Positions 1 to 50,792 of a stretch of DNA of 64,000 bases are shown in pieces. Under the pieces are notes generated by a model. The model had not been told where the DNA came from, made no database searches, and worked only from the letters and a program-made list of their open reading frames with translations. A program made the translations under genes and the position numbers. The stretch's first letter is position 1; every line of letters begins with the position of its first letter. This DNA comes from Massalongia carnosa. Taxonomy: Eukaryota. The stretch is from assembly GCA_965645245.1 (NCBI GenBank), contig OZ287071.1:682001-746000 (forward strand), written 5' to 3'.

Positions 1-1563
1 CCGAGTTTCAAACCCTAAAAGATAATATGAAATTGGATTATCAAGTCTCGCTAACATATCGTGGTTAATGCGCCGAAGAATCAGGTACTTATCGTGGCTT
101 GACTAATGGTGATTCTATTGTTGCACCGAGATTGGCGAAGCAGTCCAACTTCTGCACATGTTTACGCTCCCTTGGGCTGTACCGCTTTCCCAGGGCCATG
201 TCCCTTATCTGGCCGTGACATCGTTCATCTTTATTATGTATAAAACAAGAGCCGCTGTACAAGCTTCTCCATTGTATCATTACTCACGCTATTTGAGAAC
301 TCTGTTCTTTCATCATGTACTCTTCTTCGGGTGACTCTTTTCCAGCTCATCAATATATTCATCCACTTAAGGCGCCGCAAAGGTGCTCGTCGAGGTTCTT
401 AACATCTATTAAAACCTTGGTACGGCGGCCATTTTTACCGAAGTTACTATTTCCAAGCCAGTTCCAGACAAACAAGAGAGGAGAAATAGGATCACCAATC
501 TCGCATATTATCGATCCAACACAACAGCCTCGACAATTCAAACTAAAAACTCGCTTGAAGCAGCCTTCCTGGCACCGTCGCCGCCGCAACGTTCCAGTCA
601 CCAGTATGGCTGACTATCTGACGCTGGCCCAGTTGGAGAACTTCTGGCATCAACAAGAATTCGATAGAGCAGATGTGATGATACCTCGAGCTATTCCAGA
701 ACAGACTTGTGGACCCTTGGCAAAGCAAAACCGAGGTTGGCAGTTCAATCAGCTCAGCAACATTCATCCGGCTCTTCGGTCAGGATATATTTCTACTCTC
801 GAGAGAGGGGACGAGTCGAGCACATGCTATCGTTGTTCAGAACTCGCGAGCCGGTGGATATGACCGATACTACCAAGGTTATAGAGAGTTCAACGTTGCA
901 CCACCTATATCTATTTAACGGATATGAATCAGCCGATTCAGTTTACTTCAACCTTCACCCGGACGAATGCTGGGTTGGAGTTGAGTCGGAGAGGTGGTAC
1001 ACGATAGTAGCTCAATCCGTATCCCGCGTCATCTCAATTACCCATCGCCTTCTTCGCAAGAGCAATGGATAGTCACACCTAGCAACAGCATATTAGATAT
1101 ACCGTCGAACCTAATCTTTTCTAAGCAATCCTTGTATTTCATCACCTATCCCAGTCAAGTCATGCACAGATAGGGAGCTTGGAAGGGGGACAAATGCCGT
1201 GGTTAGCGTTTTGAAAGGATCATAATACATCACAGAATGTCAGGCAAATCCAAATCCGCAGTAAACAGGATTGAGGATCTTACGTGAGGACTTAATTTAG
1301 GCTCCTAACCAGTTGTTCGAGTCTACGGGATAAAGGGTAACGATAGAAGGCCCATTTAGGCTAGCCTCATGTTTTACAGGTATACCATTTAGGGTTCGGC
1401 GGCATCAGTGAGGAGAATAAAGTTTCTTGGCCCTTGGCCAACATGAAAATTGGGCCGAGAGCACGATGACTGTGCAGGAAGACTGTGCAGTGGCTTCACC
1501 TGACACCAGTGCCTCAATGCAAGAACAAGGCACTAGACTTACAACACTCAAATAGGATATAGG

Positions 1564-2887
1564 CACGCGGGTGACAAAATAAATTGCAACGTGTAAGCGA
1601 ATTTACCCCCCCTTTTTTATTCAAATTTTCATCTCATCAACCATCATCTGCATAGCTGATAAAATTCATCTAAATTACATGAGATCAATAACCAGTCATC
1701 GCCCCCTTTGCATCTTTTACCTCTTTCAATCTTTTGGGCATGGATAATACCCTTTCATTGATAAATTCCTGACTGACTCGAGCCCATCCCTCCCTAATCA
1801 GCTGCTCCAAACTTGCATCGTCCCAATGAGGAAATTTACGAACATGCTGCTTTGCGGGCTGCCAGCAATTTTCAATGGAGGCTAGATCAGGAGATAAAGC
1901 ACAATTGAAATAGTGCTCTAAATCGTGATCTAACTTCCACTTTTTGACCGCGTTTCGTGTCTTGCCCGTGCCATGACCAGAGTCTCCATCTTCTTCAAGT
2001 ACGAAGTCATCTCCACGCTCCAACCAGGGCTTGACAACGGGATCAAGAATAGCGTCAATATACACCTGATGAGTCATTTTTCCATTGCTATTGCTGGGCA
2101 CATCGTAGAAGTAGATATCCGACTTGAAATTGTAACCAACTGCTGCCCAGCAGTGCTTTCTTTTACGATCTTTCTCAGGTGGTGCATCACGATGCTGAAT
2201 ACAATCCCAACGATATCTTGTTCCGGGCTTACGAATGATTCGTAACTGTCCTTCAGGCCCGTAGCCAAAATGAATCTCATCGCTGAATCGTACGCGATGC
2301 CCGTCTTCGGACCGAGGATATTTATTTAACATAACTGTAGCAAATTCTTCTCTTCTTTCTTCTGATGCCATTGCCAGCCACCCTTTGACACAGGCTAGAC
2401 ATTTGTGATAATTCGAGGCAGCTGTAAGAGTTCTCTTCATTGTACGTCCCATCACGTCGGCCCCAATCTCCTGTGCTAAAGCATCCCATGTGTAGCGTTT
2501 TCCTTCCAATTGTAGATCTTGATCCTGCAGAATGTGATCTGCCTCCTTCAGCTGATCATCACTAATATTTCGCTTTCGACCCCGAGTCTCAACGAGAGAA
2601 GAATTGTGACGTGTGCGAGAAGAAGCTCCGCTTTTGATGATGTTATAGCCCGCGCGCTCGGCCACGCCAAATTCCTGAAAAATGGCCCGTGGATCGAATG
2701 GAATTGCATGTGAGATGAGAAATTGATAAGCTCCTTGAACTTTGGCCTTTGTGGGAGTATCATAATGAGGCTTTTTGGGTCGAGACATTGATGATGAGAT
2801 AAAAAGTTGAAAAAAAGGAGGGTGTTTTGATGGGGCATTCAGGGGTAAATTCGCTTACACGTTGCAATTTATTTTGTCACCCGCGTG
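1564..2887 (-). mobile_element. Complete Tc1/mariner (IS630-Tc1-mariner superfamily) DNA transposon, 1324 bp
   Basis: Perfect 46-bp TIRs CACGCGGGTGACAAAATAAATTGCAACGTGTAAGCGAATTTACCCC at 1564-1609 and 2842-2887 (reverse complement). Imperfect inner inverted repeats at ~1604-1640 and ~2788-2824. Flanked by direct repeat ATAGG (1559-1563, 2888-2892). Encloses a DDE transposase ORF. Confidence 0.95.
1685..2788 (-). CDS. Tc1-like DDE transposase, 367 aa, uninterrupted
   Basis: Motifs VRFSDE, FVLEEDGDSGHG and SPDLASIENCW; basic N-terminal putative HTH region. Spacing from the second D to E counted by hand as 38 residues. Confidence 0.93.
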   Translation of the reverse strand: MSRPKKPHYDTPTKAKVQGAYQFLISHAIPFDPRAIFQEFGVAERAGYNIIKSGASSRTRHNSSLVETRGRKRNISDDQLKEADHILQDQDLQLEGKRYTWDALAQEIGADVMGRTMKRTLTAASNYHKCLACVKGWLAMASEERREEFATVMLNKYPRSEDGHRVRFSDEIHFGYGPEGQLRIIRKPGTRYRWDCIQHRDAPPEKDRKRKHCWAAVGYNFKSDIYFYDVPSNSNGKMTHQVYIDAILDPVVKPWLERGDDFVLEEDGDSGHGTGKTRNAVKKWKLDHDLEHYFNCALSPDLASIENCWQPAKQHVRKFPHWDDASLEQLIREGWARVSQEFINERVLSMPKRLKEVKDAKGAMTGY

Positions 2888-4385
2888 ATAGGGAAGACGT
2901 GATGTGCTTTTGCCTTCTTCAGTTAGAGCATGCAGCGTTATGAACCTAATATTATTTAATAGAAATCCAATCATTTAGGTTTTTTTATTCTAGGTATCAC
3001 CGGTTATAGGTAGGTATGTACATAGGTATCTATACTCCGTACCTTTCTAGAAGGTCGGATGTGAGAGTTTCTCCAGGTCCCGAGGGAGAAGCAAACTTCG
3101 GGTCTAGATAACTACTCTGTAGTGGCTTTCCAGAAGACTACTATAGTTACTTCGTATGGAGTACTCTGTACAGAGTACCATTACCACCTCTGTACTGGTC
3201 CAAAAGCTAGCCTCGTATTTTTCAACGGTAACTTAGCCTTGATTTGATCCATTGCGCCTCAAAAAGACCTCTGTATCTTCTCGAATTCCGTACTCGGTAT
3301 TGAGAGAACTCCCCTTGATCGGCGTCGATGTTCTTCGAGGACCCTGGATGGGAATGTGGAGCTCTTTCCTCCCTAATTGTTCTTGATATCTCGCTTTATA
3401 CGGTCAACCTGCTGTAAGGAATACTGTATTCGTGTCGCCCAGAAGTGATCGATATTTTGTTTGGGTTAGTGTACAGTGTACAGTGTACTCTGTACTCTGT
3501 GTAAAGAAACGGATTGAACTGGATAGTTCAGGTTAAACTTTCGTTTGTAGTTTTCCGCTGGAGAACGGATTCGCACAGGCTGGGCTTATCAAACAAGATC
3601 CCACGGCTTGGAACGTACTTTGCGATAAGTCTCCGCCAGAATACGAACAATCCTGCATCTTTTGGAAGCGTTGTTTGCTATCTTTGAGCGCACCGAGCGG
3701 GGATTTAAGCGCTCAACTCCTTGACATGCACCGCTGCAGATAATTGCCGTGCCGAGCTTGCGCGGGAAAGGTTGACAGGAGACGAAGTGTGTTCCTGATA
3801 TCCGACAGGACTCGTTTCACAAGACGCAAGAAGCCGGTTCGGGGAACCCCACCTGCCAGGCGTACGAGCATGTGCAGTATAAGCGGCTTTTGGTCAATGG
3901 TTCTTCGAGGGCGGCCATGCCGCCAAGACGCGCTTTCCGCTTTGCCGATAGGGGTTTGACTGAGCGAAAGCAGACCAACCTTGCAGATAAGTGGGTATCA
4001 ACCTATCCATATATCAAACTAGGCATATATGCTCAGCATTGGCTTTTCATGAAACTGAAACTTATTCGGAAAATCAGGCATGGTAACAAGGCAAATCGGT
4101 AAAATCAGAAGTTCGTATTTTGCCTTGGATCAATGATTCGATTGTTCTCATTCAACTAAAAAATGGTGCGACGCACGACTCGCCTGCTAGCCCATTGCGG
4201 CGCGGATGTGGAGCTGGAATATAGTCTACTACTTGCGGCAAATGGCTTCTGCCACTTCGACTTCGCTCACCATTATATAGTACTAGCCCGCTATCCCAAC
4301 CATCACGAGTATCACTCACGGCCTGACAGCCTGTTTCTCAAAGGGCTGATAAGTGAAGGTTACCTGGGATGATCGACAAGGCACG

Positions 4386-5708: not shown

Positions 5709-6799
5709 GTATATTAATGGTTTACGATGGAAAGAATATACATGAGATATGACTGCGATCAGGTACCATCAGGTCTTATAATCTATACGTACGCATCGTC
5801 ACTAAGAGGTTAATTCTCAGCATTCCACCCCATCCATCCATCTGCTCCAACCACACCTACCGCTCATCCCCAAGCTAAAAGCTTAGTTAGGAAGGTGCCG
5901 ACCCAAGTCCCCAAACATTCAGATACAACCTTTCTATCTCGAAGTTCTCCAAGACCAGAGTTGCGAAGCTGAGAATACAAGCCAAACCCACTCAAACCAT
6001 AAGAAATCAGAAGGAAATACATCCTGGGGGGGGGGGTACGTGTTCTTTTGTGGAAGGTCTCGGAATTGGGAGAATAGGATTCTGGGGAAATGGATCTGGA
6101 TGGACCGGTCCGTGTAAGTATATGGATAGGAAAGGACAGGACTGATAAACTAACAGTGACGAATCGAATCATCCATTCAACCTATTTTATTATATCACTG
6201 CCCGGGTTTTGGGTCTCCTGCCTTTTAATAATGTTCGTTTGTTTTTTTCATTCATTCATTGGTTCATTCTTATTCTCATGCTCGTAAACATTCATACATC
6301 CATCAATCTATGCACTCCATATATACCACCACCACTAGCCTCCATACCTCCCCGAGCAAGTCCCCCATCCCAACCCAACCCACCCGCTCAACTCTCCCTT
6401 TCCCTCATCCTTCTCATTCCACCCTCCTCCCCCTCCCACTCCCAAAAAACCCCAAACCAACAAACCGAAAAACCGAAAACCTCAAGAAAAAAGAGAAGAA
6501 ACCCCAACTCCAGCTCTAAACGCAATACGTAATAACATACATACGTACATAACATATCGTCCATACTACAAATCATCCTTCCTCTCTACACACTCCCCGA
6601 ACCCCTAACCTCAACCCCCCCCAAAAAAAAGAAATAGAAAAAGAGGGGAAAAAAGAAAAATGCGAAAGGCGAAAAAAGAGAACCCGGTTCGCTTATCTAC
6701 TACTTAAAGCACAAGGTTGGGTGACATTGGTCCGTGCCCCCCTCCATAATTTCGAAATACAGTCACAAAACATCACAAAAACAGACATTTTCTTCATTT

Positions 6800-9006
6800 C
6801 TACCATTTGGTTGCGTTACCTTCTCTGTCTTTACATTGCTTTATACGAGAAGGCATTGTAGCCACCAGATTGTCAATTTCCTCCTGTTTTACCTCGTTCC
6901 ATTCGTGCTGAACGGCCTTCTTCATGTCATCCAGGGTGGTGATAGTCTTTTCATGACTTCCGATTCGTTGTTTGATTATCCTCCAAACATTCTCGATTAA
7001 GTTGAAATCTGGTGAGCATGGAGGCCATGCACCATCGTTGAACAATGGAATTCTGAATGAATCTTTCAGTTATGAAAGATTTCGCTTTCCAAACCCCAAA
7101 CCATGAGCTCGATTTCCATCCTCCTGAAAGAGAATTTCACCGAACTCTCGGGCATGAAGAGAATGCTCAGTGCGTTCATAAGGAGAAATATAATTACTTT
7201 CCTGAAAGTACGGAGAAACAACCGGTGGTAGCACCTGTTTTATATAGTCTTCTTTGGTCATCCTCCCTCTGGCTCCGGAAAGATTCTGCAAAAACATCAA
7301 TTTTGATTTATATCCCCATCCCACCATTCCCCATACTGAAAAAGACGTTCTACCACTCCGAAAACGAGTCTGAATGCAATCAAGACAGTACCGTTCACCT
7401 GTCTTGCGAAGATTTTGATCCTTCTTGTGTTTGCCCTTGTAAAACGTGCTCTCATCACTGAATCGAACTCGTTTCCAAGCATGCGTCCAGTTCTCGAACT
7501 TTATAGAGAAAGCGAGTCGAGTTTTTCGATTCTTTTCATTAATCAAAGGTTTCGGACATGCTGTGCATTTGCGATAGCCCAACTGAGCTAAACGTCGTGC
7601 AAGAGTTCGAGGATGAATTGATAAATTGTGACGTTTGCATAAATGAGCAAATGACAAACGTCTTCCGGGATATTTCTCCTTAAGCACCCAATTGAGCACC
7701 TTTTTGATTTCCGAATCGGAGACTTTTCGTGCTTTTCCAGTCCGTTCAGCACCTTTTCTCCTGACTGTGTGCCCAACATCGCGCTGTTTTCGCCATTTGC
7801 GGAGTGTCCCGATGCACCCCTGTGGCAGCATGAATTTTATGCAGTGACTGTCCTGCATCCATGCAACCGTAACACTGATTTTTGGTTGGTGTATCCCATT
7901 CTAAATCATGATAACCACCTCGTTTACGAGTACTTCGAGAACTGCGTGATGATAAATTCTTACACCGATATGTCACCGGCCGAATGCCGGCCCATGCGGG
8001 CGTGGTTCTATATGACTATTGTACATAGGAAAACCTTTAAGGAATAAAAACCTAGTAACCAGTATTATCGCCTGCGGGATCCCCATGACCCCTCAGTGTA
8101 ACTAATAACGTGTATCTGTGAGGTCCTTGAAAGAAAAAGGAAAAGAACGAAAGAAAAGGGGAAGAAGCCAAACACTTCAAATGCTGTGTCGACGGGAATT
8201 ATCCGTACAGCATGGTCGCTGCAAATGAAAACTGTTTTAGTATATCTGCCCGCATTAGCCATGCTGTCAGCTTTTTCAATTTTGCGGAATTTTCAATTAT
8301 CGTGCGATAATTGTTAGTTTTCACTTGATTAAATAATTCATTTCTTCCGTCTATCAGCTGACAGTCACATATGCACGCCGGTGAGTTTACATTGTGTACC
8401 CTTCGGTTGAAAAGAAAGTTGGCTAGCCCGATTTTCTCCGTGCGAATTTGCGTTGCTAGTGAACTCTCCGCTTTTGCCAAATTGCTATGAATTTTTAATC
8501 TCTTTTTATCAAGCGAAGCTTGTTGAGCCTCGGTGGGAGGTGGAATGCGATTTTGATAAGTCGCCCATGTTGACTTCCATATTTTCATATGATGCTCCAT
8601 GAGCCGCGTATGATGTGCCCGTTGGGCCGTTCGCGCTTCACTCAGCTCCTTGAGATATTCTGGACTGGCCTCGTACCACGGGGGCGCGGAAGGCGGTAAT
8701 CTGACGGCGGTCTCTCCATTTAACATTGCCTTGGCCCATGTGTGTTTCAATTCTCCGGGTGTTGGCGGCGGAGTTCTTCTTCGACCCGCTCTTTCCCGTA
8801 GCTTATTAGCTATTATCTTGCATGCGGAGTTAGCGAGTGCTTTTTGCCCCGTGATTCGTAGTCGATATCTGGCTTTAGCCTGCAGTTGATCCAGATACAC
8901 ATCTATTGGGGCTATGTGTGTTTCTGCCTCCAGCACCGGTATCGGGGTAGCCTTGAACGCTCCGGCGACTGTGCGTAGGCATCTGAGAACTGCGTGTAAT
9001 GGCTAT
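6800..9006 (-). pseudogene. Tc1-like transposase pseudogene
   Basis: Reconstructed (M)AITRSSRSTRKRGGYHDLEWDTPTK...VRFSDES...FQEDGNRAHG...WPPCSPDFNLIENVW. Lesions: probable start codon now ATA (9004-9006), LINE insertion 7949-8984, frameshift near 7805, in-frame TAA at 7070-7072. Confidence 0.9.
7949..8984 (-). mobile_element. 5'-truncated non-LTR retrotransposon (fungal Tad1-like LINE, 3' end of ORF2 plus 3' UTR)
   Basis: Reading frame CLRTVAGAFKATPIPVLEAETHIAPID...SSLATQIRTEKIGLANFLF...SPACICDC (stop at 8199) resembles the post-RT C-terminus of fungal LINE ORF2. 12-bp TSD GAGAACTGCGTG at 7937-7948 and 8985-8996. GC-rich hairpin and short ATCAT tail at the 3' end. Confidence 0.88.
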
Positions 9007-9593
9007 GTGATTAATGAATAATTAATGAAAACTGGTGGTGGAAGGGGCAGTTTTTCGAATTATAGGGGGGGCACGGACCAATGTCACCCAACCTTGTACC
9101 TTGGTGCTGCGTTTGTTGGTGACGAGATCCAGCCTCCTCTCTTTTTCCCGTTCCTGGCATATGTACATCAAAAGGCTCATGTTGGTGGTCTAGTTTAAAA
9201 ATAAACCTGACCTAAACCTAATCTACCAATGTATGCATATGTATACCTATCTACCTGCTCAATTCTGCAGGCAGGCAGGCAGGATGGACGTGTGTGCAAA
9301 GGGCGCGTCTCGGATCGGTATAGAAGGTTGATTTGATTACCTATGTACTCTATATTCTAGGTTGGCTGGTAAATAAATTAGGGAGAGGAATACATCCGTC
9401 CGTCCATGCTCTTGCTCACCGTGCTCGCTATCTATGCCTGGCTTCCTACTTGTAAAAATGCTCATGCCCGCTCTGTGCTTGCCTCCCGCATGTCCAAAGT
9501 CGCTGAGACAGAACCCCCCATGTCGGGAAAGAAAAGATTTGGAAATGCTATTCGACCCTCGTCGCCCGGCCAACGAAGGCGAACTGGCCAACT

Positions 9594-46315: not shown

Positions 46316-49300
46316 ATGTCTCAACTCCTAAAGGTCAGTTAGGGGAATCATCCACAAACATGAAATGCTCACACTAAAAGGTGGATTATATCTGTAGCCC
46401 AACAACGGCTCTGGCATTTGCAAAGCTAGAATCTAGAATCCTGGTTTTATCAGGCGAAGGTCTATGGTTGCGTGTCTTTGATCAACAAACAAATAGATTG
46501 CTCTTATCAAAGCGCGTTTTTGGTGCTCAGGCAATACATGGCATTGCATGTTCTGCTATTATATCACTGATTCCTGGCAAGCAACGCTTTATCCGAGCAT
46601 TGATTTGGGGTGGCCGCTCTATATGTGTTTCTAACATTGCCTGGGATGCAAGTTCGCCCGATTTGACCTTGGAAGACGTAGTCCCCGAACTACAAGCTGA
46701 AGACTGGATACTTGACGCATGTTTCAAGCCTCCATCTGCCAGCAGCAAGAGTGATGTTGATTTCTTTGGCGCTGTGCTTATTACTTCTCACAATGTTCTA
46801 CTCTGCTTGTCTACTCGAATTGACCCATCTTCGAAAGCCGGAAATTGTTCATTGCTCAATCGTGTCGCGGCTGGCCCGAGATCTATTCTTTATTCTGCCC
46901 ATGTACTTTGGCCATTAACTGGGCTTGGACTAGTTGCTGCCGGGACTGTTAATGGAGAGGTTCTGTTTTGGTCTTTCCTCAGCCATAACTCTACGGCTGA
47001 ACCAATCCTATCATTTTCTAGTCGTTTACACAATACACTCCGAGGCCATGAGGGCTCTGTATTTGGCGTTAGGATTTCTGATGAATTCTTCGATGCAAAA
47101 TTAAACAGATCTCGACGGATCCTAGCAAGTTGCAGTGACGATCGAACTGTTAGGATATGGAATATATCATTATCTACTTTTGACGTGATAAAAAATGGCT
47201 CACGGAAAGGATTCCTCAATACAACTCATGGCATCTTTGATGAAGACCTAGGAAACGGCAAAAGCTTAGCTTTAGCTACTGCTATGGGCCACGCTTCTCG
47301 AATTTGGGGCCTGCGTTTTCTCGGCCAAGTCGATTCAAATTGGCACCTCTTATCCCTTGGAGAAGATAGCACCGCGCAGATTTGGCGACTTCAAAGACAG
47401 CCCAATACTACAACATCCTACCAAGAATCACATAATGCAGAATCTTTTCTGCTTCAATATCTCTCTACATATAAATTTCATTCCGGAAAAAATATTTGGG
47501 CAAGCGCAGCCTACAGCCACCCGGATACTAGCATATTAATTTGCAATGGAGGGGCGGATGGTCGTATTGTATGTTTCACCATTGGGAAGGATCTAGCAAA
47601 AGTTGGCCATACTTTACAGTGTTGGACTATAGATGAAGTAATCAAAAACATTGACAATGGCTTTGCATCACATCATACAAATATGACAGCTCCTGAGCGA
47701 GTCGAACCCTCTCCTGGAGACATATTCATTGCTTTGGAAGGAAATTGGAGGCTCTATCGAAATCTAAAAAGTGCAATCGCTACATATCCGTCAGGAATCT
47801 TTGAAGGTACTGCAATATTTAAAAAAAGGCTTCCTTCAGATGTCCTATATGATGCAGAGTACCTGTATATTGAGGAAGGTAAATTCACCACAGGGCGGGG
47901 TCTTTCCTTTGCAGCAACCAGACGCTACGTGTACCGTCATCAGAAAGATAAAGATATGATAAGTGCGTGGTTCGTAAAGCCAGATGACGGAACGGTTGTT
48001 GACTATCTTTTCCACGAACTGGACTTTGTAACGCAGGTCGGTGCATCCGTCGGACTAAATGATGATAGAAAGGCATTGGTCCTCCACGCACAGGGGTATC
48101 ATCTGTGTATTGAAGATATCTATCAACCTGTCTATAAATTTCGATTCAAGCATATGAAGTTAGATACCTGGAGCTTGAAATACACCGTCAAAGGGCCCAA
48201 CAAAGATTATACAGCGGATTCATGTTATGCTCGGGAGACTTCGATCAAGGATTGGAAGCATCGACCAGATTTAGAGCGAATTACCAAAATAACACCAATC
48301 ATGACTGCTTCCAGCGAAGATACTCTTCTATTCCGGAAGCCGACGTTGAAGCTTGGCTCGTTTAAAACCTACACCTGGGTAAACGACCATGAGTTTCTTG
48401 TCTCAACTGAACAAGGCGGACTCCTTCTTGGGACCTTGGGTAACTCGAGGAAATTTTGTACACTGCCTATGGAAGACAGTTTAACAGGAGTTTCCTGGGC
48501 AATAATAACAGAATTGGATGACCTGAGAGTTTGTTGTATATTAACAAGGATTCCATCATATGAGATGGTGATCTTCGCTGGAAGACCGGGCACAATATAT
48601 ATTTACAGACACCACGATAGATCAATATACTCCCTAGCCAAGATTGCGGGAAAAGTTGACTACATGAAGGTTCATCTAGTTCATAATTTAAGAACTGGCT
48701 CATCCAAAACCTATGGGCTGTCTAACGCCCTTGTCCCAATCTCCTGCTTAGCTTCCTCGACAGTTCATCTCTACTTTATTGAGATATCTACGGGCACCTC
48801 AGTTTGCTCAATCTTACAGGAGTTGGTCCTCAATCGGTCGCGGAGCTTCATCGTCACGAGCTCATGTTTCATTGAGCGGGAAAACATAATGATTCTAGGC
48901 TCCAGGAATGGCGCTCTCGCTTTCTACAACCTTCATTCAAAGGAAATCAGTGAAACCAGCCTCGCAGTCTCTTTGAATGTAGAACACATACACGGGAACG
49001 ACGCTGTGACGGTGATTGACGAAGTGGCTATCACACCAGCCGAAAAAACTACTAATGCCATATATATCGTCACAACAGGTAGAAATGGCACTTATGCTAT
49101 TCATCAGATCAGGTTTAATGTTAAAGCTAGCTTGCAAAGATCGGTGGACTTCCAAACTGTGCATGTAGGCACACCTCCACTAGGACCTCAAATCGAAGGT
49201 GCCTCCTTCCACCAAAGTACTAATGATCTCTTACTGTGGGGCTTCCGAAGCCAGCAGTTCGTGTTGTGGAACGAGTCCCAGAAAACAGAAATTATGAGGG

Positions 49301-50792
49301 TGGAATGTGGCGGCGTCCATCGAAATTGGGCATTCTCTCTATCGAGAGATGATGCTGGTGGAAGTTTGGTATGGACGAGAGCCTCCACTTGCCATATCCA
49401 GTTTCAGCCACAGGCTTCCCACCGAGTTCTACAGTACGGGGGTCATGGTCGGGAGATCAAAGCCATGGCATTATCGCCTCTGATAGCAAATAATGGCCTT
49501 GAGCATAGATATATTGCAACCGGCGCGGAAGATACCGCCATTCGCATCTTCGACTATTCTGCAGCCGAGAGCAATCACTCCAAACAAACGTTCAACTGTT
49601 TGGGAATTTTCACCAAGCACACTACCGGGATTCAACAGCTCCGATGGTCTATTAACGGAGAATTTCTTTTCAGCGCAGGTGGTTGTGAGGAATTCTTCGT
49701 CTGGCGAATTCGCCCTGTCCCGTGCATGGAACTCGGAGTGATGTGTGTGGCCCAGTGCCCGCCAGTGACGGAGTCATCCGATCTGCGAATTATGGATTTC
49801 GATATAATTGGGATCCGAAACGGAAATCGCCCAGGTAGCGATTCCAATGCCAACGCATATCTCCTGAGCATGGTATACTCGGATTCATCGGTGCGAGTAA
49901 GTTTCAGTCCCCCCGTGACCATAAATGAAAGGAATCTAACAGCCAGAAACAGGTCTATACCTACAGCTCCTCCGCACCCCTGCGCCCATTCACCCTCCTC
50001 TCCGAGGCCTCGTATACAAGCCATTGCCTCCTCCAATCCACCTCACTCCGCTTTGGCCAATCCTTTTACCTCTGCACAGCAAGCACAGACGGCCACCTCG
50101 CGTTCTGGCCGCTCACGGCTCTCCTGTCTGAGAATGGAATCACCGCAAGCACGGATGGCAGCCTCACCCTCCAATCTTCCCGTTTCATTCCGACACGGGA
50201 AAAAAACTCCCAGCCTATCCCATTGACATACGAAACCCGCACCAAACTCCACCAAAGCAGCATCAAAACCCTCACATCTTTCCTACTACCTCCCACCACC
50301 GCCCTCCTGGCCACAGGAGGTGACGACGGCGCGCTGGCATTCACCATCGTCACGTACTCCCCCATCTCCTCGCCTCTCACCTGTTCCGCCTCCCTCCTCC
50401 TCCCCCGCGCGCATGCCTCCACAATCACAGCCCTCGCCCACCTCCCCAGCGCCACGCACGTGACCGACTATGGCCTTCACCATCATCATCAACATCCCCA
50501 ACTCACCATCATATCGGTAGGTAGTGACCAACGACTCAAGAGCTGGCACGTGGGCATCGGGCTGGATTCGGAGCGGACTCCTCCAGGCGCGGCGGGAGGG
50601 AGCCTGAGGGTGCGGAGAGGGGGGAACGTGCATTGCAGCGTGGCGGACGCGGCTTGTTTGGTATCTTTTTTCGAGGAGGGGAGGGATGGGGAGGGGGGGA
50701 CGGAGAGGGTGTTGGTGGGCGGGATTGGGGTTGAGGGCTTTGCGGTTGGGGGGGAGGGGGGTGAGAGTGAGAAGGGGGATGGGGGGGACTAG
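46316..50792 (+). CDS. RTT10: WDR6/Trm734(Rtt10)-like WD40 protein with an internal DUF6314-like insertion, 3 exons
   Basis: SILYSA, GHEGSVFGV, LASCSDDRTVRIW, MGHASRIW, HSGKNIW, LWGFRSQQFVLWN...CGGVHRNW, GHGREIKA, ATGAEDTAIRI, DLRIMDF, HQSSIK, SVGSDQRLKSW. Introns 46334-46380 and ~49897-49952. Confidence 0.88.

Follow-up and report, generated by a model that had tools for sequence, protein, structure and literature searches.

A Tc1-family transposon from a fungal contig, flanked by ATAGG as a putative 5-bp target-site duplication instead of TA

Results

An intact transposon with perfect inverted ends

We analysed a stretch of 64,000 nucleotides from Massalongia carnosa (contig OZ287071.1 of assembly GCA_965645245.1, positions 682,001 to 746,000), referred to below as the window. 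Positions 1564-2887 of the window are occupied by a transposon of 1,324 bp, delimited by an inverted-repeat search and by direct reading of the letters, which carries a transposase gene of the Tc1 type and is flanked on both sides by the pentamer ATAGG, where TA would be expected. The terminal inverted repeats lie at 1564-1609 on the plus strand and 2842-2887 on the minus strand; each is 46 nt long and the two are 100% complementary. The left arm begins with CACGCGGGTGACAAAA, its opening letters being CACGCGGG, and the right arm closes with CCCGCGTG on the plus strand, which gives the element a CAC at its left end and a GTG at its right end. An initial annotation of this DNA had described perfect 46-bp repeats with these same termini, and our search recovered them exactly. 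Just inside the terminal repeats lies a second, imperfect inverted pair of 30 nt with 83% complementarity (1615-1644 and 2787-2816, both given on the plus strand), the right arm of which overlaps the region of the transposase start codon. The transposase gene (1685-2788, minus strand) encodes 367 aa in a single open reading frame that fills the interior of the element and needs no intron. Perfect 46-nt ends around a single open reading frame, with a total length of about 1.3 kb, correspond to the layout of the Tc1 family.

Judged on its sequence, the copy looks young and intact. Besides the perfect ends and the open frame, the dinucleotide indices of the transposon (TpA/ApT = 0.50; (CpA+TpG)/(ApC+GpT) = 1.68) carry no signature of repeat-induced point mutation (RIP), in agreement with the earlier proposal of a recent, intact insertion, and the transposon is probably still mobile. 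It is the only copy of its kind in the window: an end pattern of 28 nt, allowed up to three mismatches, matched the element's own two ends and nothing else in the 64,000 bases (chance expectation 0.00 matches in 100 shuffles), and a tblastn search of the window with the transposase returned, as the sole other match, part of a distant second element (6803-7750, 29% identical).

The outer boundary of the element matters for everything that follows, and it can be compared with the ends of fungal relatives. A report on mimp elements, the miniature derivatives of impala, gives TT[TA]TTGCNNCCCACTG as their end consensus, with TA coming next at 150 of 158 matches in one Fusarium genome (PMC3599309). 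Set against CACGCGGGTGACAAAATA in the transposon, the mimp/impala consensus CAGTGGGNNGCAAWAA reaches a score of 10, which only 13 of 2,000 shuffles attained. The alignment starts from the very first base, with CA-GTGGGNNGCAA in the consensus facing CACGCGGGTGACAA at the transposon end, and the terminal CAC of the transposon matches the CAG start of the consensus base for base. Because the terminus aligns with the published consensus in this way, we place the boundary at the end of the inverted repeat and regard CAC as the true outer limit of the transposon. We also regard the element as impala-like, a judgement that draws on its end sequence rather than on protein comparison. An inner boundary at the TA found within the inverted repeat (positions 17-18), which would imply insertion into a palindrome, was rejected on the grounds that the impala/mimp consensus can be aligned with the outer 16 bases.

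A transposase of the Sleeping Beauty fold

DDE_3 is the one Pfam family that matches the transposase (E 2.6e-9, 37.5 bits against a cut-off of 28.6); no other Pfam family, helix-turn-helix families included, appeared at E ≤ 1. Its alignment with relatives that are likewise 367 aa long covers 100% of the protein. For the comparisons below, a family alignment was made of the transposase and 36 relatives, mostly full-length ones together with four named ones, taken from 120 listed of 292 matches. Compared with solved structures, a profile of this family matched a single sequence at E ≤ 1 (E 7.7e-19), which is the catalytic domain of Sleeping Beauty. An AlphaFold model based on the same alignment has a mean predicted local distance difference test (pLDDT) score of 79, and its best fold match is again Sleeping Beauty (5cr4_A, E 1.3e-10, template modelling (TM) score 0.74 by target length). 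Mos1 and human SETMAR come next, with retroviral integrases and the Mu transposase far behind.

The alignment with Sleeping Beauty fixes the catalytic triad as D170, D267 and E306, whose codons, derived from the sequence, are found at 2279-2281, 1988-1990 and 1871-1873, respectively. Between D267 and E306 there are 38 residues, so the enzyme is of the DD38E type, as had been counted by hand before; the assignment to the IS630-Tc1-mariner type made at the same time is borne out by DDE_3 and by the resemblance to Sleeping Beauty in both sequence and fold. The complete triad is present in 34 of the 37 aligned family members, with E306 invariant. The distance from the second D to the E is not constant among them: it amounts to 37 residues in 21 members, 38 in 12, 39 in one, 40 in one and 41 in two. 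Within this alignment, 38 is one local variant among several and does not mark the family. Residues 267-272 (window 1973-1990) read DGDSGH and are nearly invariant in the family. Towards the N-terminus, the Pfam family HTH_Tnp_Tc3_2 is detected in 23 of the 37 aligned members, the transposase of the window not being among them, and the model predicts helices at residues 11-52 and 77-134 with low confidence in between. An N-terminal DNA-binding domain is probable. We have hardly any doubt that we are dealing with an autonomous member of the Tc1 family.

ATAGG on both sides and TA on neither

The left junction reads ...GGATATAGG/CAC and the right junction GTG/ATAGGGAAG, the slash marking the end of the element; in the longer readings, the left flank is ...AAATAGGATATAGG and the right flank ATAGGGAAGACG.... 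ATAGG is directly repeated at the two ends, at 1559-1563 and at 2888-2892. Outside it, the sequence continues as ...AAATAGGAT on the left and GAAGACG... on the right. No base can be added to the repeat on either side, as the comparison sets T at 1558 against the end base G at one limit and C against G at the other. The dinucleotides that adjoin the element are GG on the left and AT on the right, and TA is found at neither end of this one copy. Direct reading therefore agrees with the initial annotation, in which the missing TA and the ATAGG on both sides had been pointed out. The missing TA is noteworthy because a canonical Tc1 insertion with its boundary at CAC would show TA on both sides. 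It is unlikely that an original TA decayed on both sides, because the ends are perfect, the frame is open and RIP has left no signature.

How often would five flanking bases agree by chance? A virtual element of equal length was slid along the whole window, and five identical flank bases were encountered at 60 of 62,656 positions, about 1 in 1,040; the window-wide 5-mer frequencies lead to a chance match of 1 in 918. These values uphold the earlier estimate of 1 in 1000 for the window at large. Near the insertion the odds are less extreme. ATAGG is found locally at 1552, 1559, 2888, 3006 and 3022, which is 5 of 592 local 5-mers compared with 49 occurrences in the 64,000 bases, and the local chance of a match is about 0.003, or 1 in 340, an enrichment that the initial annotation had missed. 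The local excess of ATAGG and TAGG (1552-1563 and 3006-3026) is accompanied by a near-palindrome of 19 nt at 3005-3034. This excess could be nothing more than a feature of AT-rich intergenic sequence, or it could point to a target context that is preferred.

A degenerate second element

A second Tc1-like element, degenerate, spans positions 6710-9098. Its left end reads CACAAGGTTGGGTGACA and its right end TACAAGG..., and the ends are 92-95% alike. On the minus strand, the frame of the transposase is broken into two parts (6800-7045 and 7070-7858); its product is 29% identical to the first transposase and still matches HTH_Tnp_Tc3_2. The core GGGTGACA is common to the ends of both elements, and four of its five occurrences in the window fall within these four ends. 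The second element exceeds the normal length of a Tc1 element by about 1 kb of foreign sequence. Within this excess lies an open frame of 267 aa (8199-9002, minus strand), for which no Pfam match was obtained at E ≤ 0.001. By eye it resembles the tail of fungal reverse-transcriptase proteins of the long interspersed nuclear element (LINE) type; another repeat may have contributed it as a captured or nested fragment.

Family and host

Relatives of the transposase are numerous (292 at E ≤ 0.001). With 97% identity across its full length, the best of them belongs to a 90% cluster of 43 member sequences; this close identity and the size of the cluster suggest, at the level of sequence, a multi-copy and recently active family. 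Those relatives that carry a name, among the matches listed, belong to Dothideomycetes, Leotiomycetes and Orbiliomycetes, and their annotation is 'Tc1-like transposase DDE domain'. Clathrospora elynae, Bimuria novae-zelandiae, Pyrenophora tritici-repentis, Botrytis deweyae, Orbilia blumenaviensis and Pseudogymnoascus are among their sources. When bacterial and archaeal contigs were scanned with the family alignment, ten loci were obtained, all of them bacterial IS630-like genes with 23-33% identity and none fungal; they were set aside as uninformative on the target of this lineage.

The neighbouring genes are housekeeping genes of a fungus, as the initial annotation had supposed for the host. 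They include a ZIP transporter, an aspartyl-tRNA synthetase, a Fab1-type lipid kinase, a Rad2/XPG nuclease and ABC transporters. The nearest named aspartyl-tRNA synthetases, 59-60% identical, are from lichen-forming Lecanoromycetes. By its gene content, the host is a filamentous ascomycete. Elsewhere in the window, an open frame of 1,282 aa (46378-50226) combines DUF6314 with WD40 repeats.

Discussion

How the ATAGG repeat could have arisen

The element would best be explained as an autonomous cut-and-paste transposon of the Tc1 family and of the fungal impala-like kind. Its transposase would bind the 46-bp inverted ends through the N-terminal helical region, and the RNase-H-like domain with D170, D267 and E306 would excise the element and join its 3' ends to a new site. 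If the two joins lay 5 bp apart at the site of insertion, gap repair would leave ATAGG on both sides instead of TA. In our preferred reading, the 5-bp stagger would be a property of the transposase lineage and not a single accident. The parts of this proposal do not deserve the same trust. Anatomy, protein family, intact triad and the flanks of this single copy are established, whereas its activity and the binding of DNA by the N-terminus are inferred. That ATAGG is a duplication made by this very insertion is probable, and it is the simplest reading for this copy. To extend it to other copies is another matter: a 5-bp duplication as the regular habit of the lineage is a proposition to which we give somewhat less than even odds. 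That a fungal impala-like branch of the Tc1 family has dropped the requirement for TA and joins its ends 5 bp apart is a tentative proposal, to which we assign a probability of roughly 40%.

Several observations weigh against a new habit of integration. The window holds one copy only, from which a habit and an aberrant event are not separable. Impala and mimp, the closest characterised relatives by end sequence, need TA, at least in the section of PMC3599309 that describes their ends, and the Tc1/mariner families in the literature that we examined are all described with TA. Additionally, the family is widespread in sequenced fungi, and a 5-bp duplication common to all of it would probably have been spotted by repeat curators. 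At the site itself, ATAGG is about 11 times enriched, and another ATAGG stands 7 bp upstream in the left flank. The enrichment weakens the argument from chance roughly threefold; the argument stands nonetheless. Finally, the second element has a related end and no 5-bp flank repeat: read with its CAC/TAC ends, it is preceded by TAAAG and followed by CCTTG. No flank repeat appears with ACAAGG ends either, and with CAAGG ends, two bases further in, the flanks become CA and TA, which differ from a TA duplication in a single base. Its age and its distance prevent this element from deciding the question, and it neither supports nor refutes a 5-bp duplication in its intact neighbour; if anything, it leans against a habit that would extend over the whole genome.

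Could the copy in the window be a one-off, belonging to an ordinary impala-like Tc1 family that duplicates TA? Either a rare off-register integration or the capture of an excised element by end-joining at a staggered break, where fill-in would duplicate 5 bp, could have produced the ATAGG repeat. The rule of TA across the Tc1/mariner families in the literature examined speaks for such an accident, as does the single copy seen in the window. Moreover, the rule is not absolute for enzymes of this sort: in the portion of PMC5801840 that tabulates insertion sites, 28,794 of 2,018,489 Sleeping Beauty integrations (about 1.4%) are at sites other than TA. However, these exceptions are tabulated there as other dinucleotides, with no longer duplication, and the dinucleotides at the two ends of our element, GG and AT, do not even match each other. 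Our literature searches found no integration of a Tc1 family with a 5-bp duplication, and that a rare event should be met in the sole copy sampled is improbable in itself. We give a one-off a smaller chance than a habit of the lineage, but a substantial one.

Two further explanations fare poorly. One retains the usual TA duplication and takes the element to be 1562-2888, with two additional bases (GG) beyond the inverted repeat at the left and one (A) beyond it at the right. The flanks would then read ...GGATA-TA/GGCAC...GTGA/TA-GGGAAG, and there is indeed a TA two bases outside the left end (1560-1561) and one base outside the right end (2889-2890). But the unequal offsets would oblige both enzyme copies, although bound to identical sites, to cut at different distances, the additional matches (A at 1559 and 2888, GG at 1562-1563 and 2891-2892) would be coincidences with odds of about 1 in 64, and the impala/mimp consensus aligns from the CA itself; we consider this arrangement very improbable. 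The other denies any duplication and ascribes the identity of the flanks to chance, for instance after recombination between two copies or after a move within a larger segment. The local abundance of ATAGG, which raises the odds of a match up to about 1 in 340, lends it some colour, and the older element at 6710-9098 has no flank repeat of any kind. Still, the odds are between about 1 in 340 and 1 in 1,000, and the TA expected from each parental insertion would be missing from both flanks without explanation. Such a coincidence seems to us equally far-fetched.

What a 5-bp stagger would mean

TA duplication is a defining feature of the IS630-Tc1-mariner group, and it follows from the way in which the paired enzyme bends and opens the target DNA. 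If our proposal of a 5-bp stagger is true, this would be the first lineage of the group with a 5-bp target duplication, in which an otherwise Sleeping-Beauty-like enzyme would handle a differently bent or spaced target DNA. It would mean that target geometry can change within one fold, and structural studies of target capture could set the enzyme beside Sleeping Beauty and Mos1. A small fungal transposon tool free of TA sites might also become possible. Annotation pipelines that demand TA flanks, in turn, would set the limits of elements like this one wrongly. If, on the other hand, other copies carry TA, the element is an ordinary intact Tc1-like transposon with one odd insertion.

Comparison with known systems

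CAC...GTG termini combined with a 5-bp duplication typify Transib, and the initial annotation had drawn a comparison with Transib and RAG. The likeness to Transib/RAG1 does not go beyond these ends and the 5-bp flank repeat and is one of surface. The transposase is unrelated: in place of a RAG1 core we found DDE_3 as the sole Pfam family and a fold closest to Sleeping Beauty, Mos1 and SETMAR. Moreover, Transib is reported to be absent from fungi in one survey (PMC5751038).

Among the IS630-Tc1-mariner elements themselves, our literature searches found none with a 5-bp or otherwise non-TA duplication, and the matches to '5-bp TSD' (target-site duplication) concern long terminal repeat (LTR) retrotransposons, Ginger and Transib. 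The departures from TA in the superfamily that are known to us are duplications of 3 bp, TNA in Tc4 and Tc5 and ANT in the ciliate element TBE1. Elements called 'Tc1-mariner' in Sclerotinia and Paracoccidioides were considered as kin and rejected: they are larger and contain domains of the HTH_psq/Tc5 or CENP-B type, and those of Paracoccidioides have DDD transposases. We take them to be pogo/Fot1-like and outside the family of the window.

With Intruder, a DD38E family, our transposase has the same count of 38 residues between D and E in common. Because this spacing varies from 37 to 41 within the fungal family, DD38E alone does not, in our alignment, indicate membership of Intruder. According to the section of Gao et al. 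that deals with its distribution, considerable hits to Intruder were obtained in animals only, in TBLASTN searches that included fungal genomes (PMC7731502).

In its end sequence, the transposon comes closest to impala of Fusarium oxysporum and to mimp. Like the transposon of the window, impala is a small, single-gene, fungal element of the Tc1 family. The impala group is classified as DD37E in the part of Dupeyron et al. that treats it (PMC7325037), and this spacing is also that of 21 of the 37 members of our transposase family, whereas the copy in the window is DD38E. Published spacings of impala are inconsistent, as the same element is placed in DD34E/Tc1 in the corresponding part of Gao et al. 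(PMC7731502). Two differences concern the ends: in the data on mimp available from PMC3599309, the inverted ends are about 27 nt long compared with 46 nt here, and TA is required (150 of 158 matches), whereas the copy in the window has ATAGG and no TA.

Sleeping Beauty, of the DD34E/Tc1 type, is the best match by sequence and by fold among solved structures, and the motifs SPDL..IEN and the C-terminal G..T.Y are common to both enzymes. The identity amounts to 26% only. After the second D, the family profile has three residues more than Sleeping Beauty and the transposase of the window four more, and the DNDPKH of Sleeping Beauty corresponds to DGDSGH in our transposase, in which the lysine is replaced by glycine.

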